Assembly (NCBI GenBank): GCA_947170265.1
Contig: CAMVSV010000010.1
Span: 9,702 to 73,701 of the forward strand
DNA from: an uncultured Prevotella sp.
GTDB taxonomy: Bacteria > Bacteroidota > Bacteroidia > Bacteroidales > Bacteroidaceae
DNA length: 64,000 bases
Reading direction: 5' to 3'
Both the position numbers and the translations under genes were made by a program. This document shows, piece by piece, positions 8,349-52,094 of the stretch. Each line of letters starts with the position of its first letter. The stretch's first letter is position 1. The notes under the pieces were generated by a model. It did no database searches and was not told the origin of the DNA. It worked only from the letters and a program-made list of their open reading frames with translations.

Positions 8349-8861
8349 TTATGGTTCAAGAAATTCATCGTTTTTTTTAAGACACAAATGAGTAGAATCA
8401 TTATCAAGGTACACATAAGAATCTGTTGTATAGCCATGAGTCCCACTTTTATATGTTTTAAACGAAACTTTGTATTTACCGTGTAAAGCATGTGGATAAG
8501 CATCTATCAATATAGAATCTGGATTGGAAGATAGAACTTTCCAACGATACCCAAACAGCGACATCTTTTTATTTACATAGGAATTGAAGTTAGGAAGACT
8601 TATATAATCGTCATGTATTTGTATTGTCACGACGACTATTTCTTGTAAAATAATTTCAAAAGACCGATATATTTGTGACGAATCCAAGATAATTTGGTAA
8701 TCCCCCTGCAACTTATTATAGACAGGAGATTGTGCTAACCTATATCTGCCTGAGCATTCATAAGCCCCTGTAGCAAGAACTACAAATAAAATGACAAATA
8801 ATAACGCCTGAAACAATTTATTTTTCAATAAAAGGTTTAAATTTATTAGTTTTCGCATCAT
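8349..8861 (-). CDS. Hypothetical exported/anchored protein
   Basis: 170-aa ORF starting ATGATG, with an N-terminal hydrophobic segment LFQALLFVILFVVLATGAY. I recognise no family. Confidence 0.45.
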   Translation of the reverse strand: MMRKLINLNLLLKNKLFQALLFVILFVVLATGAYECSGRYRLAQSPVYNKLQGDYQIILDSSQIYRSFEIILQEIVVVTIQIHDDYISLPNFNSYVNKKMSLFGYRWKVLSSNPDSILIDAYPHALHGKYKVSFKTYKSGTHGYTTDSYVYLDNDSTHLCLKKNDEFLEP

Positions 8862-9216
8862 ACCTTCCTTCTTTATACAATATTTTCTTTCCTATGTTTT
8901 CTACATATCTATTATTTGCAATATTTTCACCTTGAAAAACATAATTGACTATAGCTCCCCACATTTTGGAGTCAACCTTATATTTTCAGGAATTAAAGAT
9001 GCATTTTTTATTACAGCATCCATTGATGATTTTAATGATTTCATTTGCTTCTCTAAAGCATTCCTATCCCATATATTTGAAAGCATCACATATTGATCCA
9101 AAACAGCAATTGCAAAATCAAACAAAAGCATAGCACCAGCACTTTTAGCTCCTTTTACAGAACTAATACTTTTTGGTTTAAATCTCCTGTCAGAACCATC
9201 CCCTGTTCATTATGCT

Positions 9217-9669
9217 TTATTTCATTTCGTATTCAGTATACATTGTTTCGAAAATTTCATCTTTCCAAGGGTAGTATTTTATAGGAATGTAGAGTCTTTC
9301 TTTGAAAATAATAAGTGGACCAGAAGTTTCACCAGTGAGTTTATATACAAGGCTTTTCTTTTTGTCAATTAGTTTTCTGTAATATATCCATGGAGCTACC
9401 ATAAGATTGAAAGATTTTAAATAATAAATAGATGTGTCACTTGGGGTGACAAGCAATAGGTCATCCGAAATTACAGTATCATTATCATTCTCAATGGTCA
9501 TATATGCGGGTTCTTTAAATGCCGCTGCATATAAAACGGATTTTACACTATCTGGAAGTTCGTAATATGTTATTTTTCTACTCTTCAGCATCCAAAGTCT
9601 ATAATCACAAGAACTAAAAATAATGCAAATAAGAATAAAGGATAAAATCAAAACGAAGATTTTTTTCAT
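9217..9669 (-). CDS. Hypothetical lipoprotein
   Basis: 150-aa ORF. Signal peptide plus lipobox-like ICIIFSSC. Confidence 0.5.
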   Translation of the reverse strand: MKKIFVLILSFILICIIFSSCDYRLWMLKSRKITYYELPDSVKSVLYAAAFKEPAYMTIENDNDTVISDDLLLVTPSDTSIYYLKSFNLMVAPWIYYRKLIDKKKSLVYKLTGETSGPLIIFKERLYIPIKYYPWKDEIFETMYTEYEMK

Positions 9670-9759
9670 TTTCTCTCCTCCTTTTTAATTTTGTTTATCC
9701 AATCATTCTCCATATTTGAAAATAATCTGGATTGATATTCACATTATATTTAGAAGAAC

Positions 9760-10491
9760 TCAAACGCATGTTTCTCCGATATTTGTGTTTTGGGGGTGAC
9801 TATGCAGATAAAAACCTTGCCTCTTGTTCTGAATCTGATTTCGCTTTACTAACTCCGCAATAAAGCCTAACAGAGCTATTGCCTCTTCCTTATTGTATTG
9901 TCTGTCTTTAATAGTAGTAATTATAGAATTGGGGAAATCATCCCTTTTTCCAACAATCTCTATTGCCGTTTTATTTATCGATTCAATATTTTTAATTTTA
10001 GTTTTATAATATTCCTCTTTTTCTAATTCATTATGAAGATCAGGCGTTTCAATGGCTGAGTTGTGAGCACCATAGTTTAATCCGTATTCTTCATATATAT
10101 ACAATGACAATCCAACTAAAACACTATCTGTGTCTGCAGAACTAAGTTTTAAAGACGAAATAAAATTACATGTCTCTTCTATAACTCTAACAGGATCCTC
10201 AAAACCTATATTTTCTAAAGAGTATGGAACTTCTTTATACAGTATAAACATTCTATTCGAATAATGTGGACGATAACTTAAACGAAAAGAATATACTCCA
10301 TCATGTTTACTTTCATTAATCTTCGATAAATTAACGATAGTAGAATGTTCTTTTATCCCAATATTATACATATGATGAATCTTAGACAATACTTTTTTAG
10401 GTAAACAAGCATTAGTTCTATAATTTTGTCCATTAATATTTAGACAAAAATAAAGTGTAAGAAGCAATAAGCTCATATTATTTTTCATCAT
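9760..10491 (-). CDS. Hypothetical secreted protein; candidate cognate immunity protein of the Rhs-CT toxin
   Basis: 243 aa with a signal peptide (MSLLLLTLYFCLNINGQ). Its start overlaps the stop of the upstream Rhs-CT ORF by 14 nt (10478-10491). Confidence 0.5.
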   Translation of the reverse strand: MMKNNMSLLLLTLYFCLNINGQNYRTNACLPKKVLSKIHHMYNIGIKEHSTIVNLSKINESKHDGVYSFRLSYRPHYSNRMFILYKEVPYSLENIGFEDPVRVIEETCNFISSLKLSSADTDSVLVGLSLYIYEEYGLNYGAHNSAIETPDLHNELEKEEYYKTKIKNIESINKTAIEIVGKRDDFPNSIITTIKDRQYNKEEAIALLGFIAELVKRNQIQNKRQGFYLHSHPQNTNIGETCV

Positions 10492-11503
10492 TCTGTTCTT
10501 TAATCACTTTTAATTTTATTCTATACATAGATTCTGTCTTCCTAGCTTTTTTCTCATAGATAAAAGAAGATACTGGTTTCTGCTTGGGTTGACTTGATTT
10601 AATATCTCTATGTACCTCATCTGGATCAGCAGCATGGACAGATTCATGTGTAGCCTCTGCAGCTAATGCTTCTTCCATACTCAAATTATAATTATCATTG
10701 TTTATTTCAGCCATTGATTGCTTTATCATGTCTATGTAGAGCGTAATTTTTGCCCAGGTGGAGCTATATTTACCATTCTTGAATACGATGCTACTACCAT
10801 CTTGTTTCGCTTGTTGAGTATCTGCATACGTTACACCATTTTTAGTATTGGTATCTTTAGAACTATATTCTAAATGTATTGCCGTAGGAGATTTTACCAT
10901 TAATAATAGTTGATTCCTACCAGTCTTTGTTTTCATCATACCATTATAGAGCATTTTCGTATATTCACTTGCCTTAGGTGATAATGTTAATTTTCCATTT
11001 TGAAGATAAATCACCTGTATTTTTCCTTGATATACTTTTTTCCCATCCGGATTCACATACCTCACAGGATTGTCCCGGCAATACACATACGGGCTGATGC
11101 CAGGGTCTTTCTCTGCCAGCGGGTCCACCGTTGGCCACTGCTGCAACTTGCCGTCCATCCACCGCGCACCGTAGTCCTGCATGTCCCAGTTGAGGAAGCG
11201 GTCGAGTTCCTTGCCATTGTACTTGTATTTCTGCTTGTCGCCGTTGAAGCTCGTGCCCAGCAAGCCGCCGAAGGCATAGTAGTGGTTCACCTGCTCCGCC
11301 GTACCGTCAGCAGCCATCACCACACGCACGCTGCCGAGGTGGTCCTTCAGGAAGTAGTGCGGCACTGCCTTCCCCGTAGTCTCGTCGAAGGTGAAGTAAC
11401 TCTGAGGGAACAGCAGGCTCTCCTTGTAGTTACCGTACAGCTTGTGTCCTGCACCGTCATAGACATAGCTTACATACGAATCGATTTCGGGATGTTCCAT
11501 CAT
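10478..11503 (-). CDS. Orphan RHS/YD-repeat core-end fragment fused to a C-terminal HExxH toxin domain
   Basis: 341 aa. YD repeat YVYDGAGHKL, core end HLGSVRVVMAADGTAEQVNHYYAFGG...YNGKELD...DYGARWMDGKLQQWPTVDPLAEKDPGISPYVYCRDNPVRYVNPDGK, then a tip of about 185 aa containing ATHESVHAADP. Only about 150 aa of core are present, so it is not a full-length Rhs. Confidence 0.75.
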   Translation of the reverse strand: MMEHPEIDSYVSYVYDGAGHKLYGNYKESLLFPQSYFTFDETTGKAVPHYFLKDHLGSVRVVMAADGTAEQVNHYYAFGGLLGTSFNGDKQKYKYNGKELDRFLNWDMQDYGARWMDGKLQQWPTVDPLAEKDPGISPYVYCRDNPVRYVNPDGKKVYQGKIQVIYLQNGKLTLSPKASEYTKMLYNGMMKTKTGRNQLLLMVKSPTAIHLEYSSKDTNTKNGVTYADTQQAKQDGSSIVFKNGKYSSTWAKITLYIDMIKQSMAEINNDNYNLSMEEALAAEATHESVHAADPDEVHRDIKSSQPKQKPVSSFIYEKKARKTESMYRIKLKVIKEQNDEK

Positions 11504-11511
11504 TAGTTTTT

Positions 11512-12084
11512 CTAATCACAATTACTTTTTTCCTCAGAACGTGAACGATAATATCGCTTTACATTCTGACTATCTATCAAAAACTCAATATCTGGGGCAT
11601 TATTACTGGATATTGTTCTTACATATTGTAACTTAATCTTCTTGATGATAGTATCTAAAGGAGCATTGTATAATCCCAATCTTCGCAAAGGGACCGCATA
11701 TAGGCGGATAAAGATCCATGCACTATCGCCGGGATTGACTACATTACCCTTACTTTTAAGTCCAAAGCTACAGAAAGGGACAACTTCTTTTTCACCATAG
11801 CAAACCTTTATTGCGACACTACTTGTATCTATTAGTCCTTTATTATTTATAGGCAGCAACAAAGACTTCTTGCTATCGTTATATAACATAAAGTGAAAAT
11901 ATAAAGTTCGCGAGTATGGCAAACTATCATTAGAAGGATTATAATCATCTGGATATTCATCCGAAATATTGTAACATTTTGCTGTCACAGTTTTTCGGCT
12001 GGCCAAGGAACATGATGCGCACAAAAGCATTATCAACGCAATGATGCACGAACTCATTGTTAGTTTACTCGGTTTCATCTGCAC
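11512..12084 (-). CDS. Hypothetical lipoprotein; candidate immunity protein
   Basis: 190 aa. Lipobox LLCASCSLAS. Its start overlaps the stop of the upstream 200-aa ORF by 10 nt. Confidence 0.5.
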   Translation of the reverse strand: MQMKPSKLTMSSCIIALIMLLCASCSLASRKTVTAKCYNISDEYPDDYNPSNDSLPYSRTLYFHFMLYNDSKKSLLLPINNKGLIDTSSVAIKVCYGEKEVVPFCSFGLKSKGNVVNPGDSAWIFIRLYAVPLRRLGLYNAPLDTIIKKIKLQYVRTISSNNAPDIEFLIDSQNVKRYYRSRSEEKSNCD

Positions 12085-12677
12085 CTATATTCTGGTTTGT
12101 TTTCAGAAAAATAATCATATAAATCCCGCAGTTTCGGTGAAATCTTCTTCCATGATGGATGATTCTTCTGCATCTGAAGAATTCTCCCATGCCTTTTATA
12201 CGAAATATCCTTTATTCCATGACCTGTTAATTCATGTACACCAAGAACGCTGACTACATTGGAAACTGTTGATAGATATTCCCTATCAGAAGATTCTGTT
12301 GGGTGAATATATGCTGTTACTTGATAACCTGTTTCCTTTGTTTTTTCTTCAGCAACATCTGCATCTTTATACAGAATCGTGTTTTCATGATTGAAAACAA
12401 TGGCACTTTCATATGCAGGCCCATCACCACGGCTGTTATACTCTAACTTTACAATGGTAACTTTTCCATTTTCCAATTTGGAGGTATCAAAGCCATTGCG
12501 TTCCAATACATCCGTAAATATATTAGAGTAAGCCTCGGGAGAAAGATCGGAATCTGCTATTGACTGCCTATTCCATACCGAAACCAGCCGATTCCCATTT
12601 TCCAACTCTTTGCCATATTCATACTTTGTTTTTTTCAAATAGTAACCGCAAAAGTAATAAATCACTACCAATCTCAC
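12075..12677 (-). CDS. Toxin-like orphan C-terminal module lacking an ATG start (possible 5'-truncated pseudogene)
   Basis: 200-codon open frame. The only ATG is near the 3' end, and the possible starts are TTG/GTG. Contains GVHELTGHG. It is translationally coupled to the downstream lipoprotein gene. Confidence 0.35.
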   Translation of the reverse strand: MRLVVIYYFCGYYLKKTKYEYGKELENGNRLVSVWNRQSIADSDLSPEAYSNIFTDVLERNGFDTSKLENGKVTIVKLEYNSRGDGPAYESAIVFNHENTILYKDADVAEEKTKETGYQVTAYIHPTESSDREYLSTVSNVVSVLGVHELTGHGIKDISYKRHGRILQMQKNHPSWKKISPKLRDLYDYFSENKPEYRCR

Positions 12678-20624: not shown

Positions 20625-22439
20625 TCATTTTCGTTTCCCATCCCAATTGTATAAGTGATTATACCTAATTATTTTATCAGAAATAGCGTATGCTTTTTTA
20701 AGATTATCTATTTCTGATGATGACACTTTTGTTATATCACCTTCAATATGATAATTGGGTGCAATAGCAAATGGCGATTTATCTACAGAAAGAATACTCT
20801 TCCCTAAACCTTTCCAAACATAATCTTGAAGTTGCATTAAATGGAGTAAAGTGGGATAGATGTCAATCTGTCCCATCACTGACTCATAACGCATGGGCTT
20901 CGGAGAGTTGATGATAATCAATGGTACAAAAGGCTTGTCAGACACCAGTCCTTTTCCTTGTCGGGTTCTACATAGACTTTCGCGGTCACCAGCCAATCCT
21001 TCATGATCTCCCATAATAACAATCATTGTTTCTTTATAATCTGGACGTTTTTGAAGATAATCAATCAAAATGCCAAGAGCGTGGTCTGTGTAGTTAGCCG
21101 TAACAAGATAGTCGCGCAACATTTCAGGATAATCCCCTTTAAGATGAATGCGATGCAGATCCTCAGATAACTTAAACGGATGATGTCCTGAATATGTTAC
21201 AAACTGGATAAATACATTATTGTCTTTATTCCATAGTTTGCCATGCTTCATCAGTTCCACAGCTTGACTCATGAGTGCAGCATCACCGATGTTTTTCCTC
21301 GGTCCACTGGCGTCTTCCATCTTCCAGTCATTTCGATACATGGCACTATCTATACCAAAGGCCAAAGCAACAGCCTGTTGATTCCATATCGTTGGCCGGT
21401 CTGCCGTCAGCAACCAGCTATGAGTGTTCCAACGCTCCTTCATGGCTTTGGTAAGCGTAAAAAAGCGATTCTTGGGATATAGCAATGACCATGCACCGCT
21501 TTCAACAGGCAACAGACCAGCATTGACCATCAGTTGGCAGTCAATGCTGCGGCCACCTTTCACTTGTGACAGCACATGAGGCGCATATAGAGTTGATTGA
21601 TTGCGTATGAGTTTATTGAGATTCGGCGTTATCTCTATCCCCTCCACACGCTTTTCCAATACCCACGACTCCAATGATTCACAAAGAACAAGCACCAGAT
21701 TCTTTCTCACTCCAAGGCTGTCTGCTGGCGATGATATTGCAACATGCTGACGCAAATAGTCGGCAATCTCTGAAGATTCTTCTTCGCTGATATGTGTTCC
21801 ACTTGTCAATGAATCATATACCATCATCCCGAATATGGTGTATGCTGGTGTTACACACATATAATCATTTATTGTTTTCCGTGATTTGATAGCATTTACC
21901 AGTCCTCCCATTACAAAAACAAGACATAACGAAAGTGTTACACACAGGACTAACACATTTCTAAAGCCTTTACGCCAATTTTCTTCTGTATTCTTGCGCC
22001 TCACAAAGAAGAAAGGAAGCATCAACAACGGCAAAAGGAAGTCGGACCATCGTATAGATGCAATGACACTGGGAAGGAAATCCGTCAAGTTGTCTGCTAT
22101 CAGATAGCTCTGCAAAGGTATAGCACTGTTGTATGTGCGGTTATACATTAGGTTTGCTATCAACAGAAGGTCAAGAATGAAGACTATTGGAAGAAAGAAC
22201 CGATCTTTACGCGAAAAAATATATGGGAGCAAGAGTATCAGACTGACTGTCAATGCATTGATATATGTCTCTGGATACGAAAATGCACGAAAGGTAGTTT
22301 GAATAGACCAAAACAAATCAAACAATAGAAATGTCGAAACAAGTAAGATCAAACGAATTCTTACCTCATAAGACAACTTGAACTTTTCAAAGATGCGCTT
22401 CATAGTCTCCTTATTTAAGGATGCCAATAACTTTTCCAT
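20625..22439 (-). CDS. LTA-synthase-family / sulfatase-domain membrane protein
   Basis: The ORF track starts at a TTG (22445), and an ATG lies 2 codons in. An N-terminal multi-TM block is followed by an alkaline-phosphatase-superfamily domain (LVLVLCESLESW ... IVIMGDHEG). Confidence 0.7.
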   Translation of the reverse strand: MEKLLASLNKETMKRIFEKFKLSYEVRIRLILLVSTFLLFDLFWSIQTTFRAFSYPETYINALTVSLILLLPYIFSRKDRFFLPIVFILDLLLIANLMYNRTYNSAIPLQSYLIADNLTDFLPSVIASIRWSDFLLPLLMLPFFFVRRKNTEENWRKGFRNVLVLCVTLSLCLVFVMGGLVNAIKSRKTINDYMCVTPAYTIFGMMVYDSLTSGTHISEEESSEIADYLRQHVAISSPADSLGVRKNLVLVLCESLESWVLEKRVEGIEITPNLNKLIRNQSTLYAPHVLSQVKGGRSIDCQLMVNAGLLPVESGAWSLLYPKNRFFTLTKAMKERWNTHSWLLTADRPTIWNQQAVALAFGIDSAMYRNDWKMEDASGPRKNIGDAALMSQAVELMKHGKLWNKDNNVFIQFVTYSGHHPFKLSEDLHRIHLKGDYPEMLRDYLVTANYTDHALGILIDYLQKRPDYKETMIVIMGDHEGLAGDRESLCRTRQGKGLVSDKPFVPLIIINSPKPMRYESVMGQIDIYPTLLHLMQLQDYVWKGLGKSILSVDKSPFAIAPNYHIEGDITKVSSSEIDNLKKAYAISDKIIRYNHLYNWDGKRK

Positions 22440-22455
22440 CCTCAAAATTCTACAA

Positions 22456-45820: not shown

Positions 45821-45851
45821 TTTGTCATAAGGCAAATATTCCTTAATTTTG
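45821..45851 (+). promoter_or_regulatory. Bacteroidetes-type promoter about 420 nt upstream of the GT2 operon
   Basis: TTTG (45821-45824), a 19-nt spacer, then TAATTTTG (45844-45851). Confidence 0.45.
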
Positions 45852-45967
45852 CAGCGTCTTCATCATGAAGCGGAACTTACAATATCGGTACAACCGACAA
45901 AAAAGCAGAAGCGGATGGGTGGGACTACATTTTATAAAAAAGTGTCTACATAGGCGCTTTGTTCTTT

Positions 45968-46155
45968 GACGCTTCGAAGTCTCGCAAACTCGAATCCTAG
46001 TCAAAAGCAAAGCAACGGTAGATGCTCATGGGTATGTTATACCAACCGATGGCTCGCATCATGCGTGGTCCATAGGTGTTGGCATATACATATGCGTGTG
46101 GGCTTCTGCGTTGCTCGTTTCGACTAGGATGGGCAATGCGAGACGCCTGAAGCGT
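45968..46155 (+). ncRNA. Candidate structured leader RNA (rod of four helices closing a three-hairpin core)
   Basis: Long-range complementarity: 45969-45975/46149-46155, 45979-45986/46137-46144, 45994-46002/46122-46130 and 46011-46017/46109-46115. Inner hairpins are GGTAT-GTT-ATACC (46031-46043), CCAAC...GTTGG (46044/46078) and GCATA-TACA-TATGC (46082-46095). The strand is assigned from the upstream promoter only. Confidence 0.35.
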
Positions 46156-46269
46156 GGGACGAGCAACTGGTACAGCAACCCACACTTTTTTGTATCTTGT
46201 ACCAATCATAATTTAAAACAAATTCTTGTCCGGGTGCTGCAAGGAAGCAAAATAAAAGCAGTACTGTAA

Positions 46270-47193
46270 ATGCTGTTGTCTATCATCTCTCCGATATACA
46301 AAGGGGAAAAGATGCTTGAGGAGTTGGTTACTCGAATTGAGTCCTCTGTTGAGACGTTTACCAAGGATTATGAGATTATCCTTGTGAATGACTGTTCCCC
46401 TGACAATTCATGGGAGAAGATTACTGTTATTTGCGGACAAGACAAAAAGGTAAAGGGTGTCAACCTGTCACGCAACTTCGGACAGCATTACGCCATCACC
46501 GCTGGACTCGCAAAGTCTTCAGGAGAATGGGTCGTGGTTATGGATTGCGATCTTCAAGACCGCCCAGAAGAAATTCCAAATCTATACAAGAAAGCGCAAG
46601 AGGGTTATGATACGGTGTTTGCACAGAGAGTGGAACGCAAAGATAAATTTACCAAACGCATGTCTTCTACCGTATTTAATGCTGTTTTTGCATATCTTAC
46701 AGACCAGACGCAGGACAAGACCGTTGGTAATTTTGGCATATATAATAGCAAAGTGATTAACTCTGTGCTGTCGATGGGTGACTCTGTGAGATGGTTTCCT
46801 ATAATGGTGAAATGGGTAGGTTATAAAATTGGCTATATACCCGTTGAGCATGCAGAGCGTGGAGAGGGAAAATCAAGTTACTCGCTTCGCAAGTTATTGT
46901 CTGTTGCATCTGACAACATGATAGCTTTCTCCAACAAGCCTTTACGCCTTATGTTGCAATTTGGTTTCGGAGTCGTGATTGTTTCTCTGTTGATAGCTTT
47001 GTTCTATCTTATAAGATATCTATCTGGCGGTATCGCTGTTGATGGTTTTACGACAATGGTTATCTCTATGTGGCTCCTTGGAGGCATAATGATAATGTTG
47101 ATAGGCGTGACAGGCATATACATCGGTAAGATATTTGATAAGGCAAAAGATAGACCAATATATATTATACGCGACCAAATAAACCTCGATTAG
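46270..47193 (+). CDS. GT2 polyprenyl-phosphate glycosyltransferase (ArnC/GtrB/DPM1-like)
   Basis: 307 aa. Motifs LVNDCSPD, LSRNFGQ and MDCDLQDRPE, two C-terminal TM helices, and a GIYIGKIFDKAKDRPIYII tail. Confidence 0.85.
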   Translation: MLLSIISPIYKGEKMLEELVTRIESSVETFTKDYEIILVNDCSPDNSWEKITVICGQDKKVKGVNLSRNFGQHYAITAGLAKSSGEWVVVMDCDLQDRPEEIPNLYKKAQEGYDTVFAQRVERKDKFTKRMSSTVFNAVFAYLTDQTQDKTVGNFGIYNSKVINSVLSMGDSVRWFPIMVKWVGYKIGYIPVEHAERGEGKSSYSLRKLLSVASDNMIAFSNKPLRLMLQFGFGVVIVSLLIALFYLIRYLSGGIAVDGFTTMVISMWLLGGIMIMLIGVTGIYIGKIFDKAKDRPIYIIRDQINLD

Positions 47194-47538
47194 ATGCAGC
47201 AGAAGAAGATTTCCATTAAATGGATTTTCGGATTACTGTTGGTTTTCTTGATATATTCAAGTGCCAACATATTCATGAAGCTATCTTCCTCAGAAGACGG
47301 AATGCTTATGCTGATATATCTGTCTTGTGCCATTGGGATTTTAGGTATTTATGCTTGTTTATGGCAGCAGGTGTTAAAACACATTTCGCTGACTACTGCA
47401 TTTATGTTCAAAAGTGTTACCGTTATATATGGGATACTATTTGCACATGTGTTGTTTTTGGAGGAGATTACGGTAAATAACATAATTGGTGCTGCAATGA
47501 TTGTAGCAGGAATAGTCGTATTAGGATGGAGATCTTGA
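47194..47538 (+). CDS. Small 4-TM EamA/SMR-like protein (ArnE/ArnF-like flippase subunit)
   Basis: 114 aa with four hydrophobic helices. It starts at the base after the GT2 stop. Confidence 0.6.
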   Translation: MQQKKISIKWIFGLLLVFLIYSSANIFMKLSSSEDGMLMLIYLSCAIGILGIYACLWQQVLKHISLTTAFMFKSVTVIYGILFAHVLFLEEITVNNIIGAAMIVAGIVVLGWRS

Positions 47539-47870
47539 TATTCTACATATTAGTCGCCATAGGAGTCTTTTTGTCCTCATGCTCACAGATTCTTCTGAAG
47601 AAAAGTGCACAGAGGGAACATACCTCCAAGATTGCTGAGATGATGAACAAACAAGTGATATTTGCTTACAGCATCTTCCTTGTCTCTGTTATTATAAACG
47701 TAATTGCCCTTGGGCATGAAGTAAACGTCAAGGATCTTCCAATATTGGAGTCGTTGGGTTACATCTTTGTACCTGTTTTGTCACTCATTTTTCTAAATGA
47801 GCAAATAAGCGGCAGGGATATAACAGCCTTATCTATGATAGTTGCAGGAATAATAATATTCTATTTATAG
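47526..47870 (+). CDS. Small 4-TM EamA/SMR-like protein (second ArnE/ArnF-like subunit)
   Basis: 114 aa with four hydrophobic helices. It overlaps the preceding paralogous gene by 13 nt. Confidence 0.6.
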   Translation: MEILIFYILVAIGVFLSSCSQILLKKSAQREHTSKIAEMMNKQVIFAYSIFLVSVIINVIALGHEVNVKDLPILESLGYIFVPVLSLIFLNEQISGRDITALSMIVAGIIIFYL

Positions 47871-47874
47871 ACCT

Positions 47875-48606
47875 ATGAAAATAGTAGATTGCAAGTGGGA
47901 ATTGGAGAATATCAACAAAAAGACAGTCGAGATTACGTTTGAACCTGATGATGTATTTGACAAATATATCCTATCCCAGCTTGTATCAGATTATGAATAT
48001 GCTGTTGTCAAGGTTCACATGAACATGCCATCATTCAATATTGGCCTATCAAAGATGGGCTATACATGTATTGAGACTCAAATGAACGTAGGAATCAGCA
48101 TGTTTGATTTTGACTTCTCCAAGGTAGCTCATTTGTATGATGACACAAGATACGAGGTCGTAGATAATGACAATGATTTCCGAGAGGTTGTTTCAAATAT
48201 AGAGCCTGGTATGTTCTCTACAGATAGAATATCCATCGACCCCCAGTTTGGAAAGGAAACGGGATGTATAAGATATATAAATTGGTTGACTACAGAATAT
48301 GAAAACAAGAGATCGCAATTAATAAAGGTCATATATCAAAACAAGCATGTTGGCTTTATGCTTATTCGACATGATGCTAATACGATAGACCTGCTCCTGA
48401 ACGGCTTATACAAGCCATATCAGGGTAAGGGTCTGGGCATACTGACCCCAGCATCCCCCATGATGTATATAAGAAAAAAATCATTGCCCTATAATTATGA
48501 GTTGACAAGTATATCGTCTAACAATATACCTGTTATCAAACTATATAATAGACTTAATTTCAAACTAATTCAGCAAACATATGTGTTTGTAAAACACCTC
48601 AAATAA
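47875..48606 (+). CDS. GNAT-type N-acyltransferase, WecD (dTDP-fucosamine acetyltransferase)-like
   Basis: 243 aa. Two-domain layout like WecD, with GNAT acetyl-CoA loop YQGKGLG in the C-terminal half. The assignment rests on an alignment by eye. Confidence 0.5.
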   Translation: MKIVDCKWELENINKKTVEITFEPDDVFDKYILSQLVSDYEYAVVKVHMNMPSFNIGLSKMGYTCIETQMNVGISMFDFDFSKVAHLYDDTRYEVVDNDNDFREVVSNIEPGMFSTDRISIDPQFGKETGCIRYINWLTTEYENKRSQLIKVIYQNKHVGFMLIRHDANTIDLLLNGLYKPYQGKGLGILTPASPMMYIRKKSLPYNYELTSISSNNIPVIKLYNRLNFKLIQQTYVFVKHLK

Positions 48607-49605
48607 ATGAAACCGCAAATACAGATTATTCAATTATCCATCAGCGACACTCTGGTACTCAAAGGTATTGCCATCATAATGCTTTTGTGTCATCACTGCC
48701 TGTGTACTGGTGAGGGATATGAAGATATATTCTTATTTGGAAAACCGTGTTTCCAACATGTAGGAAAGTTCTGCAAACTATGTGTAGCCATATTTGTTTT
48801 TCTCTCTGGCTATGGTCTCACTGCTCAGGCAAGAGCCAAAGACGGTGTTCCGAACGTTCTGAAATTCTACAAACGTAGATATTTCAAGCTGATGACCAAC
48901 TTCTGGATTATATGGTTGTTGTTTGTGCCTATAGGAGTATTTGTCTTCAACCGCACTTTTCCAGAAGTGTATGGTGAGCATTATATCATCAGGGCATTCA
49001 TAGACTTGACTGGACTTTGTACAAGTTCAAGTTATAACGCCACATGGTGGTTTTATGGTTGTATCATTCTTTTATATGCTCTCTTTCCGCTAATATGGAA
49101 GGCAAGGTCGTATTGGTTTCTGCTGCTACCGGCGTCTATTGTCCTATCGTTTGCAGTTAAGGGTATTCCTTTGGCAAATCTACTGGGTGACTACTTGTTC
49201 ATCTTCACATGCGGTTGCATATATGCAAACAGCAAAATAAGCTTAGGGGGGGGTAAAATGACAGCAATAATTATTCTAATTGTATTCTGTTTGTATCGCT
49301 TCGTTGCCAGGATTCCACTTTTATGGGATGCGGCTATCGTAGTTGCATTGGTCTACGCATATAATCAAGTGTCTGTTCCATCATATATCAGCAGACCTAT
49401 GGCTTTCTTGGGGAAGCATAGCTTCAACATATTCCTGTTTCACACCTTCATCTACTCATACTATTTCCATAGCCTTATCTATTGGCACAGGAACCCTATG
49501 GTGATAGTTGCGACTCTAACAATAGCATGTATTTTGATATCAATATGTATAGAACAAATAAAAAAACTTATAAGGTTTGATTTACTAATAAAGAAAATAA
49601 TATAG
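48607..49605 (+). CDS. Acyltransferase-3 family integral membrane O-acyltransferase
   Basis: 332 aa with about 10 TM helices. N-terminal LKGIAIIMLLCHH is typical of the AT3 family. Confidence 0.7.
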   Translation: MKPQIQIIQLSISDTLVLKGIAIIMLLCHHCLCTGEGYEDIFLFGKPCFQHVGKFCKLCVAIFVFLSGYGLTAQARAKDGVPNVLKFYKRRYFKLMTNFWIIWLLFVPIGVFVFNRTFPEVYGEHYIIRAFIDLTGLCTSSSYNATWWFYGCIILLYALFPLIWKARSYWFLLLPASIVLSFAVKGIPLANLLGDYLFIFTCGCIYANSKISLGGGKMTAIIILIVFCLYRFVARIPLLWDAAIVVALVYAYNQVSVPSYISRPMAFLGKHSFNIFLFHTFIYSYYFHSLIYWHRNPMVIVATLTIACILISICIEQIKKLIRFDLLIKKII

Positions 49606-49613
49606 GCACTATT

Positions 49614-50759
49614 ATGATACCATTCAACAAACCATTTCTTACGGGCAAAGAAGCCCATTATATGTATCAGGCAGTGTATACAGGAAAGCTGTCGGGTAAC
49701 GGAGTGTTTACAAAGAAGTGTCAGGAGTTTTTCGAGAGCCGCTATGGATTTCGGAAATGTCTTATGACTACATCGTGCACCGACGCACTTGAGATGGCAG
49801 CCATACTGTGTGATGTAAAACCTGGAGATGAGGTTATAGTACCATCTTACACCTTCGTTTCCTCTGCCTTGGCATTTGTTCGTCAAGGCGCAAAGATTGT
49901 CTTTGCTGACAGCCATGCCAACAACCCAAATATCGATGCAGACAAAATAGAGGAACTTATTACGGAAAAGACAAAGGTGATAGTACCTGTTCACTACGCC
50001 GGTGTGGCTTGCGACATGGATAAGATCATGAAGATAGCCAACAAGCATGATATCCTTGTTGTTGAGGATGCAGCTCAAGCAATAGATTCCTTCTACAAGG
50101 GCAAAGCCTTGGGAGGTATTGGTCATCTTGGTTGTTTCTCTTTCCATGAGACAAAAAACGTAACGGCTGGTGGCGAAGGTGGACTTCTTGTCATCAATGA
50201 CGAGCGTTTCATTCGCAGGGCAGAGATTATATGGGAAAAGGGAACTAACCGAGCCGAGTTTTTCCGTGGTATGGTTAACAAGTATGGATGGGTAGATACA
50301 GGTTCGTCGTTTCTCCCTTCGGAAATAAACTCAGCATTCCTGCTGGCACAGCTTGAACATCTTGACGAAATTCAGAACCGCCGAAAGGAGATTTGGAACA
50401 TGTATTATGAAGGGCTGAAGGAACTTTCAAACAATGGATTAATTAAGATGCCAGACATGCCAGACTATGCCACGAACAATGCCCACATGTTCTATTTCGT
50501 ATGCCGTAACCTTGACGAGCGCACAAAACTGCTGGCATTTCTTAAAGAGAAGGGTATACTTGCCGTATTCCATTACCTCAGCCTGCATTTGAGCGGGTAT
50601 TACAAGGATAACGCGGATACTATCCCTACCCTACCAAACTGTGACCGCTTTGCTGACTGCTTGGTACGCCTACCCATGTTTTATGAGTTGAAAGACGAAG
50701 AAATAGGAAATATCATAGAAACAATAAAAGAATTCTATCATGAGAAAAATGCTTTATGA
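49614..50759 (+). CDS. wecE: dTDP-4-amino-4,6-dideoxygalactose transaminase (DegT/DnrJ/EryC1 family)
   Basis: 381 aa. It is collinear with E. coli WecE from the first residue (MIPFNKPFLTGKEAHYM...SCTDALEMAA...PSYTFVS...VPVHYAGVACDMD...FSFHETKN PLP-lysine...EKGTNR). Confidence 0.88.
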   Translation: MIPFNKPFLTGKEAHYMYQAVYTGKLSGNGVFTKKCQEFFESRYGFRKCLMTTSCTDALEMAAILCDVKPGDEVIVPSYTFVSSALAFVRQGAKIVFADSHANNPNIDADKIEELITEKTKVIVPVHYAGVACDMDKIMKIANKHDILVVEDAAQAIDSFYKGKALGGIGHLGCFSFHETKNVTAGGEGGLLVINDERFIRRAEIIWEKGTNRAEFFRGMVNKYGWVDTGSSFLPSEINSAFLLAQLEHLDEIQNRRKEIWNMYYEGLKELSNNGLIKMPDMPDYATNNAHMFYFVCRNLDERTKLLAFLKEKGILAVFHYLSLHLSGYYKDNADTIPTLPNCDRFADCLVRLPMFYELKDEEIGNIIETIKEFYHEKNAL

Positions 50760-52008
50760 AATGCGTAAGGATAAGCTCGCAATGGTAGCAGGCATTACAG
50801 CCTGTGTGTGGATAATTATTCAGGTGGTACTGATAATAACTGCTTGGGACCATTTCCTTGCTCCAGACGAGAAGGAGTACATGAGAAGGGCTTTGTTTGC
50901 ATACAACAACAATGTAATATATCCTTCCGTTCATAATTTGAATGACATGTTCACCCATGCACCAGGCCTTGTCAATCTATACATGTTGATATATGCCGTA
51001 TTCAAGTCATTCAAGATTATGATGCTCATCAATTTGCTGATGAACATTGCCATACTTTACGAAGTATACTATATCGCCAAGACTTTCTTCAGCAAGAATG
51101 TTGGTTATGTAGCAGTGATAATATATTGCACTATAGTTTCAACGTGGTTTGTTCCGCTCCACTACTTATCTGACCATCCTTCATATTTCTTATTTATCAG
51201 TGGTTTTTGTCTGACACTTCAGAAGAAATGGTATTTCATTGTCTTAGGAGCAATTTGCTATGCTCTTTCATATACCATACGTCCAACCGTGCTTGCATAT
51301 CTTATGACATCTATCATATTCATGATAGCAAACAAACGTTCTTGGAAATACTATGTATGCCTACTTGTTCCTTACTTCGGGATATTATACGGTATAGGCA
51401 AGTATTTTGAAAACGAGATAGGCATATATACCAACACCTCACATATCACAGGATTTGGAATGGCACATTCTGCCAATGATGAAACATGGGCTGGTCCAGA
51501 TATGAGCTTCTACCAACATCCCGGTAATTCCGCATATATTGAGAACTCTGACAAACTGAATTTCGCTGAGAAAGACTCCATTTGGAAGGAAAGGGCCATA
51601 CAATGGGTTATTGACAATCCAGAGCGCTATGCGATGCTGGCACCACAACGCTTCTTCCGAAGCTATGCCTTAGACGACTGGTCAACCAATGATATTTTCA
51701 CAAAGGATGCCTATGGACAAGCTATTAAGTCAGATAATCCACAACGGGCACTGACATTCCTCAGGGTTAAGCAGTTTATGATTAGCGTACCGTATTATAT
51801 CATGCTATTGCTTTTTGCCTACTCTTTATGTGTTAACCGTAAAGAAATATTCACACGCAAAGGAATAATTCTGTTCATCACATTATTCTATACAGGAACG
51901 ACTTTCCTCTTACTTGCCGAACACCGCTCTCACTATGCCTTCATCTTTCCAATGATAATATGGGCAGCATATGGAGTGGAACAAAGATTTCACAGAAGTA
52001 AGACATAG
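50740..52008 (+). CDS. GT-C fold membrane glycosyltransferase (ArnT/PMT_2-like)
   Basis: 422 aa with about 10 TM helices. The first external loop carries APDEKEYM (compare ArnT/PMT xxDExxY), with a soluble loop between late TM helices. It overlaps wecE by 20 nt. Confidence 0.6.
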   Translation: MRKMLYEMRKDKLAMVAGITACVWIIIQVVLIITAWDHFLAPDEKEYMRRALFAYNNNVIYPSVHNLNDMFTHAPGLVNLYMLIYAVFKSFKIMMLINLLMNIAILYEVYYIAKTFFSKNVGYVAVIIYCTIVSTWFVPLHYLSDHPSYFLFISGFCLTLQKKWYFIVLGAICYALSYTIRPTVLAYLMTSIIFMIANKRSWKYYVCLLVPYFGILYGIGKYFENEIGIYTNTSHITGFGMAHSANDETWAGPDMSFYQHPGNSAYIENSDKLNFAEKDSIWKERAIQWVIDNPERYAMLAPQRFFRSYALDDWSTNDIFTKDAYGQAIKSDNPQRALTFLRVKQFMISVPYYIMLLLFAYSLCVNRKEIFTRKGIILFITLFYTGTTFLLLAEHRSHYAFIFPMIIWAAYGVEQRFHRSKT

Positions 52009-52044: not shown

Positions 52045-52094
52045 AACATTGACAGCAGTTACATTCCCATAGGTTTGTAACTGCTGTCAATGTT
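52045..52094 (+). terminator. Strong terminator hairpin closing the GT2-to-GT-C operon
   Basis: Perfect 19-bp stem AACATTGACAGCAGTTACA(52045-52063)/TGTAACTGCTGTCAATGTT(52076-52094), followed by a T-rich tail. Confidence 0.75.

Follow-up and report, generated by a model that had tools for sequence, protein, structure and literature searches.

A 64,000-nt stretch of DNA from an uncultured Prevotella sp. (contig CAMVSV010000010.1 of assembly GCA_947170265.1, positions 9,702 to 73,701 of the forward strand; its whole length is called the window here) contains, at 46270-52008, an operon of seven genes, g1 to g7, that is predicted to build and transfer a lipid-linked sugar. We hold with moderate confidence that this operon encodes a self-contained three-component extracytoplasmic glycosylation module that has its own donor branch for an N-acylated 4-amino-4,6-dideoxyhexose, either 4-amino-4,6-dideoxygalactose (Fuc4N) or 4-amino-4,6-dideoxyglucose (Qui4N), and decorates a surface polysaccharide. 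All seven open reading frames (ORFs) lie on the plus strand and, as an earlier reading of this DNA (the first-pass annotation) had described, abut or overlap one another; their junctions from g1 to g7 are 0, -13, +4, 0, +8, and -20 nt. The cassette has a G+C content of 0.39-0.41, versus 0.45-0.49 in its flanks.

In the proposed pathway, RmlA and RmlB, encoded elsewhere, would supply deoxythymidine diphosphate (dTDP)-4-keto-6-deoxy-D-glucose, which the g6 product would transaminate to a dTDP-4-amino-4,6-dideoxyhexose, most likely carrying Fuc4N and possibly Qui4N. The g4 product would N-acylate this amino sugar, probably with acetyl-CoA, and g1 would move the N-acyl sugar onto undecaprenyl phosphate (Und-P). 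The g2/g3 pair would flip the Und-P-sugar to the periplasmic face, and g7, via an invariant loop aspartate, would add the sugar, in the form of a side branch or a cap, to an acceptor that is most probably a capsule- or O-antigen-like polysaccharide built by a locus elsewhere in the genome. An O-acyl group may be added by g5 to the sugar or its acceptor.

Related loci, fetched around homologues of g7 and g4 and compared by tBLASTN identity, give strong evidence that these genes form one functional unit, because the GT2, the EamA-like pair, the WecE-type transaminase, and the GT-C transferase are retained together through at least six gene orders. The cassette genes were co-retained in about 11 related lineages, nearly all of them Prevotellaceae or metagenomic contigs, with g7 identities of 38-79% (Table 1). 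The seven-gene operon is real, and since its gene set is kept in many relatives despite shuffled order, its arrangement is far beyond chance. Persistent linkage of a GT2, two SMR-like genes, a GT-C gene, and wecE also strongly supports the Gtr/Arn-style Und-P-sugar route, fed by a WecE/WecD-type branch, that the first-pass annotation had proposed.

By its scores, g6 is a true member of the WecE family. It passed the WecE equivalog model NF008687 (577 bits against a cut-off of 375) and TIGR02379 (522 against 435), is collinear with E. coli WecE, as had been claimed for it, at 54% identity over 378 columns, and matched the WecE structure 4piw at 7e-130, the next transaminase family being about 80 orders of magnitude weaker (5e-51). 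These values bear on a version of the same architecture with a uridine diphosphate (UDP)-linked donor, in which g6 would aminate a CapD/PglF-made UDP-4-keto-6-deoxy-N-acetylhexosamine and g4 would acetylate the product, so that a di-N-acetyl-trideoxyhexose of the bacillosamine or acetamido-amino-trideoxyhexose (AAT) type would be loaded onto Und-P. Known GtrB/ArnC-type enzymes would accommodate such a donor, and in L016/17 the cassette is immediately preceded by a 640-aa Polysacc_synt_2 (CapD/PglF-like) gene, but this dehydratase neighbor occurs in one lineage only and g6 reached no more than about 210 bits with PseC- and ArnB-type models, under their cut-offs (631 for ArnB). We rate this version as the least probable of the alternatives weighed here.

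Structure prediction was needed for g4 and g7 because direct searches of the Protein Data Bank (PDB) were empty and profile matches weak. For g4, direct searches of Pfam, NCBIfam, and PDB sequences returned no match, and a profile search gave a weak match to the GNAT protein 2aj6 (E 0.017). The AlphaFold2 (AF2) model of g4, built from 32 homologues (predicted local distance difference test, pLDDT, 94.6), had as its top Foldseek match E. coli WecD (2fs5), the dTDP-fucosamine acetyltransferase, over both domains (E 1.4e-12, template modeling [TM] scores 0.71/0.76, about 13% identity); other tandem GNATs ranked below it. A motif-A-like segment, QGKGLG, is conserved at residues 183-188. The predicted fold supports the WecD-like GNAT call of the first-pass annotation, which had been made without a family match. 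In ordinary Wzx/Wzy loci, too, g4 homologues always adjoin WecE-type transaminases, there without a GT2 or GT-C gene, and this pairing, with the modeled fold, makes g4 a candidate N-acyltransferase of the dTDP-4-amino sugar.

Where relatives lack the GNAT, genes for ATP-grasp enzymes or an AMP-binding/LuxE/LuxC set adjoin the cassette, the latter set also standing beside a GNAT in L025. No polysaccharide deacetylase or deacetylase of the ArnD, NaxD, or LgmC type was found among the scanned ORFs of the window or in any related locus. The sugar would be expected to stay N-acylated, and hence neutral, because other candidate N-acylating enzymes occur where the GNAT is missing and no deacetylase is linked.

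The g1 product was placed among the ArnC/GtrB-like GT2 enzymes by a PF00535 match (E 2.7e-29) and by end-to-end alignments with GtrB (5ekp, 5e-54) and ArnC (3e-46) in the PDB search, as the first-pass annotation had it. Its DxD segment reads DCDLQD, and it has two hydrophobic helices at the C-terminus. Its full-length NCBIfam matches, to PgfS (1e-65) and ArnC (9e-56), both stayed under the equivalog cut-offs (222 against 500 for PgfS; 189 against 529 bits for ArnC). The UDP- and Und-P-contacting residues reported for ArnC are D48, N77, R205, S210, D100/D102/Q104, and an arginine cluster (bioRxiv 10.1101/2025.01.29.634835); the residues aligned to them, the Und-P-binding arginines included, are conserved in g1 and its orthologues. 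In the segment that g1 encodes at 46270-46310, the GT2s linked to WecE read SP[IE]Y[KQ]G; the aligned motif is PxYNE in GtrB, ArnC, and the WecE-less GT2 of L002, and by this alignment the motif is a clade marker of the WecE-linked enzymes. The YKG-for-YNE change was also considered as a sign of dTDP specificity and set aside as uninterpretable, the residues aligned to the ArnC UDP contacts all being conserved.

The same alignment is relevant to a reading as two separate, co-located modules, in which WecE and the GNAT would feed a cytoplasmic glycosyltransferase elsewhere, for enterobacterial common antigen (ECA) or ordinary O-units, and the GT2, the EamA-like pair, and the GT-C enzyme would add a common UDP-donor sugar (glucose, N-acetylglucosamine, or galactose). 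In every cassette variant, the WecE gene stands between those for the flippase pair and the GT-C enzyme or GT2, and it accompanies them through six gene orders; the three stand-alone cassettes have no nearby cytoplasmic glycosyltransferase for the sugar; and an altered N-terminal motif sets the WecE-linked GT2s apart as a clade. These points argue against two modules, whereas the retention in g1 of every residue aligned to a UDP-contacting side chain of ArnC, the g4-WecE pairs of ordinary Wzx/Wzy loci, the L002 locus (a canonical GT2 and GT-C alone, between housekeeping genes, without WecE), and a GT56 (WecF-type) gene near the L029 cassette argue for them. We consider the two-module reading unlikely.

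Both small proteins, g2 and g3, are EamA/SMR-like, and the 114-aa, four-helix, ArnE/ArnF-like pair of the first-pass annotation was recovered, with ArnE-type matches that are weak. EamA matched g2 at 7e-9 and g3 at 1.5e-4, the latter under the Pfam cut-off; ArnE matched g2 at 8e-8, also under its cut-off. Further weak matches were to the ArnE/ArnF/MdtJ/Ebr group for both, those of g3 being to MdtJ, ArnE, and EbrA. The two are distant paralogues of each other (E 6e-4), and their homologues are always paired in the relatives. No GtrA domain (PF04138) was found in the cassette proteins. As for g5, PF01757 (5e-18) confirmed the expected AT3 membrane acyltransferase, an AT3-only protein; L016-L021 have orthologues of it (41-55% identity), the L009-11 and L023/24 cassettes have none, and from this distribution the AT3 protein is an optional accessory, presumably for O-acylation.

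The g7 product had no Pfam match, and a direct search of the PDB with its sequence was empty. Its AF2 model was built from 26 homologues (pLDDT 90), and all significant Foldseek matches were GT-C enzymes (STT3, AglB, ArnT, Emb, ALG, and Pmt4) at query TM scores of about 0.5. The profile of the g7 family matched ArnT weakly (E 0.023), this being its only PDB sequence-profile match, and aligned PDEKEY with the PDEGRY of ArnT. The APDEKEY motif spans residues 41-47, in the loop after the first transmembrane helix, and D43 is invariant in the family. Together, the fold and the weak ArnT profile match sustain the earlier GT-C call with an APDEKEY loop motif, again made without a family match. With 422 aa against 541 modeled residues in the ArnT structure 5f15 (578-aa chain), g7 does not have the large C-terminal periplasmic domain of ArnT, nor did it match the NCBIfam ArnT model. 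At E<=1e-30, the subfamily accounts for 246 of 1.84 billion cluster representatives; a few family members carry weak PF13231 (PMT_2) matches, and one is named 'ArnT family glycosyltransferase'.

Several of these matches would fit protein O-glycosylation, in which a PMT/PgfM-like GT-C enzyme would modify secreted or membrane proteins with the amino sugar at their Ser/Thr-rich regions. PgfS, the best NCBIfam match of g1, comes from the protein-glycosylation system of Streptococcus mutans, but its score is far under the cut-off; STT3/AglB and Pmt4 are among the top fold matches of g7, but the oligosaccharyltransferase matches reflect the common GT-C core. The PMT_2 matches of some family members also fit, yet the neighbors of the relatives are concerned with polysaccharide assembly and include no conserved candidate protein substrate. 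Protein O-glycosylation seems to us decidedly improbable.

In 7-8 of the approximately 11 lineages (L016-L021, L025-L030, and L001), the cassette lies inside or next to a polysaccharide locus, among genes for GT2 and GT4 glycosyltransferases, Wzx, EpsG, a fucosyltransferase, a pyruvyl transferase, LicD, Stealth, and GT56 proteins. Because of these surroundings, a capsule- or O-antigen-like glycan is a more probable acceptor than lipid A. The first-pass annotation had left the acceptor open (lipid A or core, a glycan, or a protein), and the synteny of the relatives points to a surface polysaccharide. It had also allowed that the cluster might prove to be part of a conventional Wzx/Wzy locus; such loci surround the relatives only with the cassette as an embedded side-branch module, and the Und-P mechanism is not refuted by them.

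This context, the missing deacetylase, and the shortened g7 speak against an Arn-like charge modification, in which Und-P-linked Fuc4N, free or N-acetylated, would go to lipid A or core and be deacylated by an enzyme encoded elsewhere to give cationic-peptide resistance. In addition, all Arn equivalog cut-offs were missed, and the ATP-grasp and AMP-binding/LuxCE genes beside GNAT-less cassettes suggest a permanent N-acyl group. ArnC, ArnE, and ArnF are nevertheless among the best named matches of g1-g3, ArnT is the one PDB profile match of the g7 family, and the window cassette stands alone as arn operons do. We regard Arn-like charge modification as improbable. The earlier idea that the amino-sugar enzymes replace ArnA, ArnB, and ArnD holds as pathway logic; a cationic, Arn-like function does not follow from it, given the missing deacetylase and the alternative acylating enzymes. 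On these sequence grounds, we infer that the cassette is not a cationic Arn analogue and that its likeness to Arn is one of logic, not of membership or function.

Some points weigh against a self-contained, surface-polysaccharide module with an N-acyl-Fuc4N/Qui4N donor branch. The sequence of g1 does not reveal whether the donor is linked to dTDP or UDP, because the residues aligned to the ArnC UDP contacts are unchanged, and we know of no bacterial polyprenyl-phosphate GT2 that has been shown to use a dTDP-sugar. Even for model systems, we know of no proof that small EamA/SMR-like pairs act as flippases. The GNAT assignment of g4 depends on a predicted fold at about 13% identity. Among the relatives, L025-L028 have no orthologous GT2 adjacent to the cassette, and the GT56 enzyme encoded near the L029 cassette, the only place where one was seen near a cassette, could use the same dTDP-sugar in the cytoplasm. 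The window cassette itself stands alone between housekeeping genes, its acceptor being suggested by relatives only; the leader RNA described below is supported by four sequences, and a role for it in operon expression is a prediction. Gene identities, predicted folds, conserved linkage, and a covarying RNA structure are what the analysis shows directly; all functional statements, among them the donor nucleotide and its stereochemistry, flipping, the acceptor, and a regulatory role of the leader, are drawn by computation from sequence, predicted fold, and synteny.

Table 1 Features of the g1-g7 cassette in the window, and gene orders of related cassettes. In the gene orders, E-F are the counterparts of g2-g3, and GTC is the counterpart of g7.
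Feature or locus	Coordinates	Strand	g7 identity	Assignment or gene order	Details or context
Candidate Bacteroidetes-type promoter	45821..45851	+		TTTG-N19-TAATTTTG	Upstream of leader
Rod-like structured leader RNA, ~285 nt	45911..46193	+		Base helix GGGTGGG 45917-45923 / CCCACAC 46179-46185	T6 at 46186-46191
g1	46270..47193	+		Polyprenyl-phosphate glycosyltransferase, GT2, GtrB/ArnC type	Two C-terminal transmembrane helices
g2	47194..47538	+		Four-helix EamA/SMR-like; candidate flippase subunit	114 aa
g3	47526..47870	+		Four-helix EamA/SMR-like; second candidate flippase subunit	114 aa
g4	47875..48606	+		Two-domain WecD-fold GNAT	Candidate N-acyltransferase for dTDP-4-amino sugar
g5	48607..49605	+		AT3 integral-membrane acyltransferase	Accessory
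g6	49614..50759	+		WecE-family dTDP-4-keto-6-deoxyhexose 4-aminotransferase	
g7	50740..52008	+		GT-C-fold membrane glycosyltransferase	Uncharacterised ~420-aa subfamily
Perfect 19-bp inverted repeat	52045-52063 / 52076-52094	+		Probable operon terminator	12-nt loop
Leader homologues	L009:5920-6377; L023:1-312; L022:35-345 (-)			Promoter + leader region	Window counterpart 45821-46193 (+)
Window and L016/17			79% (L016/17)	GT2-E-F-GNAT-AT3-WecE-GTC	L016/17 after CapD-like dehydratase
L009-11 and L023/24			64% and 74%	Window order without AT3	Stand-alone
L018/19			60%	GT2-GNAT-E-F-AT3-WecE-GTC	Middle of large locus: GT2s, WbsX, fucosyltransferase, pyruvyl transferase, hexapeptide acetyltransferases
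L020/21			49%	Two ATP-grasp, E-F-AT3-WecE-GT2-GTC, no GNAT	Then Stealth, AT3s, NodZ-like, EpsG
L025-28			62-66%	AMP-binding/LuxE/LuxC (+/- GNAT)-E-F-WecE-GTC	L025/26 into LicD, GT2, GT4; L027/28 ends at contig edge
L029			55%	AT3-GT2-E-F-GNAT-WecE-GTC	Then second transaminase, hexapeptide acetyltransferase, Wzx, GT56
L030			38%	GTC-GT2-E-F-GNAT-WecE	Then GT2 and GT4
L001			44%	GNAT-WecE-GT2-GTC	Then AMP-binding gene; UDP-glucose dehydrogenase-family gene further downstream

A domain scan of the window covered ORFs of at least 130 aa, which make up nearly all of the 64 kb. Upstream of the cassette are housekeeping genes (HPPK, an M64 peptidase, a TPR protein, a cytidine deaminase, a tRNA, and a DNA alkylation repair protein), and downstream are the citrate lyase genes citD, citE, citF, citX, and citC/G. 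The scanned ORFs included no rmlA/rmlB, deacetylase, wzx, wzy, or other glycan genes, in agreement with the earlier placement of rmlA/rmlB and any deacetylase outside the window, and no GT56 (WecF) gene. Neither these ORFs nor the genes called in the related loci included ArnA (UDP-glucuronic acid decarboxylase/formyltransferase) or ArnD (deformylase). The inverted repeat that starts 36 nt past the g7 stop codon is a probable terminator of the operon. The perfect 19-bp repeat claimed before is present as described; its loop is 12 nt and only a weak T-run (TTTTCT) follows, so that it was missed by the consensus terminator scan. The hairpin is not conserved among the cassette relatives.

Upstream of g1, the window contains a candidate promoter and a structured leader. 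The TTTG/TAnnTTTG consensus is that of Bacteroides promoters; the pattern TTTG-N17-23-TAnnTTTG occurs 10 times in the window versus 2.2 expected, several times just upstream of genes, and between 45357 and g1 it matches nothing but the promoter listed in Table 1. L009 (TACTTTTG) and L022 (TATCTTTG) retain the TAnnTTTG box. The 550 nt before g1 are 77-81% identical to stretches upstream of the L009 and L023/24 cassettes and to L022, a metagenome contig that was the only additional locus found in a scan with the conserved 20-mer of the leader; the L022 leader reaches the end of the available sequence, with no downstream gene in view. The three stand-alone cassettes (window, L009, and L023/24) share promoter and leader, and the genes on the other side of the leader differ each time. 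An nhmmer search of the collected loci gave no further copies, and a scan of viral contigs gave none.

Within the leader, perfectly conserved blocks surround an indel-rich apex. RNAalifold folded the four sequences into a single rod of 76 pairs in which 97.7% of cells are paired. Nine pairs show compensatory double changes, a number reached by 0 of 500 shuffles and compared with at most 3 in slid controls; one helix occurs in three complementary versions (ACGCTTC/GAAGCGT, ACGGTCT/AGACCGT, and ACTACTC/GAGTAGT). The minimum free energy is -119 kcal/mol on the plus strand (z -6.8) versus -96.8 on the minus strand, the fold being strand-specific because of its many G-U pairs. Rfam gave no match to the leader at gathering or permissive thresholds, a tRNA being its one match in the window. 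Transcription would most likely start at the promoter and pass through the leader, a possible attenuator with a U-run at its end. On the strength of four sequences, we view the leader as a candidate attenuator-type cis-regulatory RNA or a linked small RNA.

Among described systems, three-component ones (GtrA/GtrB/Gtr* of Shigella and Salmonella O-antigens, GacI-L, CsbB/GtcA/YfhO, and the pentofuranose systems; PMC11127046) share with the cassette a co-encoded GT2, small membrane flippase candidates, and a GT-C enzyme, and they too are embedded in or act beside polysaccharide loci, as the cassette relatives do. The cassette differs in having two EamA/SMR-like half-transporters instead of a GtrA-family protein and in adding its own sugar-nucleotide tailoring genes (WecE and GNAT). 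These genes imply a dTDP-derived N-acyl-4-amino-4,6-dideoxyhexose as donor, a class that we did not find described for three-component systems. Whereas Gtr serotype-conversion cassettes are located on prophages, the cassette has housekeeping flanks, and no relatives of g7 were found in 2.9 million viral contigs (IMG/VR). A phage-borne, gtr-like origin, considered as a candidate, is unsupported, since neither g7 relatives nor the leader turned up in the viral contigs scanned.

The Arn system (PmrHFIJKLM) consists of ArnB, ArnA, ArnC, ArnD, ArnE/ArnF, and ArnT and adds 4-amino-4-deoxy-L-arabinose (L-Ara4N) to lipid A; Fuc4N has the ring stereochemistry of L-Ara4N plus a C5 methyl group. The cassette follows the same logic of a 4-aminotransferase, N-acylation of the amine, Und-P loading by an ArnC homologue, a small four-helix pair, and a GT-C enzyme. 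In contrast to Arn, its transaminase is of the WecE and not the ArnB type, a GNAT stands in place of the ArnA formyltransferase, there is no decarboxylase or deformylase, the GT-C enzyme is about 130 residues shorter and not an ArnT equivalog, and the relatives lie among genes for polysaccharide assembly, not for lipid A. In the Fuc4NAc (N-acetylated Fuc4N) branch of ECA (RmlA/RmlB, WecE, WecD, WecF, and WecH), the GT56 enzyme WecF uses dTDP-Fuc4NAc in the cytoplasm on Und-PP-linked lipid II. The cassette shares with this branch the WecE-family g6 and an AT3 O-acyltransferase of WecH/Oac size, and the closest solved fold to the g4 model is that of WecD; unlike it, the cassette has no GT56 gene, its sugar genes are linked to an Und-P/GT-C route, and g4 is not a WecD member at the sequence level. 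Francisella FlmF2/NaxD/FlmK and Bordetella LgmA-D likewise combine a GT2 Und-P-aminosugar synthase with a GT-C enzyme and carry an N-acetylated sugar on Und-P, but they use a UDP-N-acetylhexosamine and need a deacetylase (NaxD/LgmC) to expose the amine, whereas the cassette has no linked deacetylase.

Three-component systems are known with glucose, N-acetylglucosamine, galactose, galactosamine, galacturonic acid, L-Ara4N, arabinofuranose, and ribofuranose as donor sugars. The first-pass annotation had known of no characterised example of the combination in Bacteroidota, and our full-text literature searches, likewise, returned no description of a WecE, ArnC-like, and GT-C combination or of Und-P-linked Fuc4N/Qui4N (the term 'ArnT' being confounded by eukaryotic ARNT). 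It is possible, although we hold this only tentatively, that the operon is the first three-component periplasmic system with a dTDP-derived lipid-linked N-acyl-4-amino-4,6-dideoxyhexose, made by a GtrB/ArnC-type enzyme that accepts a dTDP-sugar, and that its acyl group is varied by swapping GNAT, ATP-grasp, and AMP-ligase/LuxCE enzymes, giving modular surface-antigen diversity in Prevotella, with the stand-alone form under the ~285-nt leader attenuator. The mechanism class is well known; the sugar variant appears to be new, and the putative dTDP-sugar-using polyprenyl-phosphate glycosyltransferase would be the most surprising part. If true, this would add a new donor class to three-component glycosylation and provide a polyprenyl-phosphate GT2 accepting a dTDP-sugar, useful for glycoengineering. 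Prevotellaceae are dominant in gut, rumen, and mouth, their surface glycans are almost uncharacterised, and their genetics are hard; a portable six- or seven-gene cassette could alter capsule or O-antigen epitopes in trans, and hence recognition by phages and antibodies. The leader is a separate candidate for a new class of cis-regulatory RNA in Bacteroidota.

Other observations concern the relatives. The two ATP-grasp enzymes encoded beside the flippase genes in L020/L021 (1212-4252) include one fused to a hexapeptide-repeat domain, and AMP-binding/LuxE/LuxC sets lie next to the flippase genes at L025:1745-5365 and L027:2491-6131; these arrangements hint that lineages share the amino sugar but differ in its N-acyl group. 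In L013 (7978-12056), L014, and L015, g4-family GNATs (46% identity) directly follow acyl carrier protein (ACP), ketoreductase, and β-ketoacyl-ACP synthase III genes, which suggests that some members of the family use acyl-ACP and transfer a 3-hydroxyacyl group instead of an acetyl group. A protein of 538-551 aa without a Pfam match is encoded directly after the GT-C gene at L018:9317-10972 and L025:9310-10926 and is absent from the window. A distant g7 relative, L012, lies in a GT4/WecG-type locus. In the cultured Parabacteroides sp. AM08-6 (L004:9947-12096), a g7-family GT-C gene (34%) stands beside a UbiA-family prenyltransferase-like gene in a Wzy/GT4/radical-SAM locus; the pairing of a UbiA-type enzyme with a GT-C enzyme has been described for pentofuranose three-component systems, whose donor is derived from phosphoribosyl pyrophosphate (PMC11127046).

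Elsewhere in the window, a low-G+C island (0.31-0.39) at 8349-12677 on the minus strand contains six consecutive ORFs to which neither Pfam nor PADLOC assigned a family above noise. The ORF at 10478-11503 resembles the C-terminal end of an Rhs/YD-repeat protein (DPLAEKDPGISPYVYCRDNPVRYVNPDG) and continues into an HExxH-containing domain, and its neighbors resemble lipoprotein or immunity genes; the island may be an orphan polymorphic-toxin/immunity array. At 20625-22445, also on the minus strand, a 606-aa protein is encoded that has a C-terminal Sulfatase-family domain (residues 248-538) and about 250 N-terminal residues without a domain match, a layout typical of LtaS/OpgB/EptA-like phospho-group transferases, which also modify envelope glycans. 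A similar gene, encoding 581 aa, is found near the L029 cassette.

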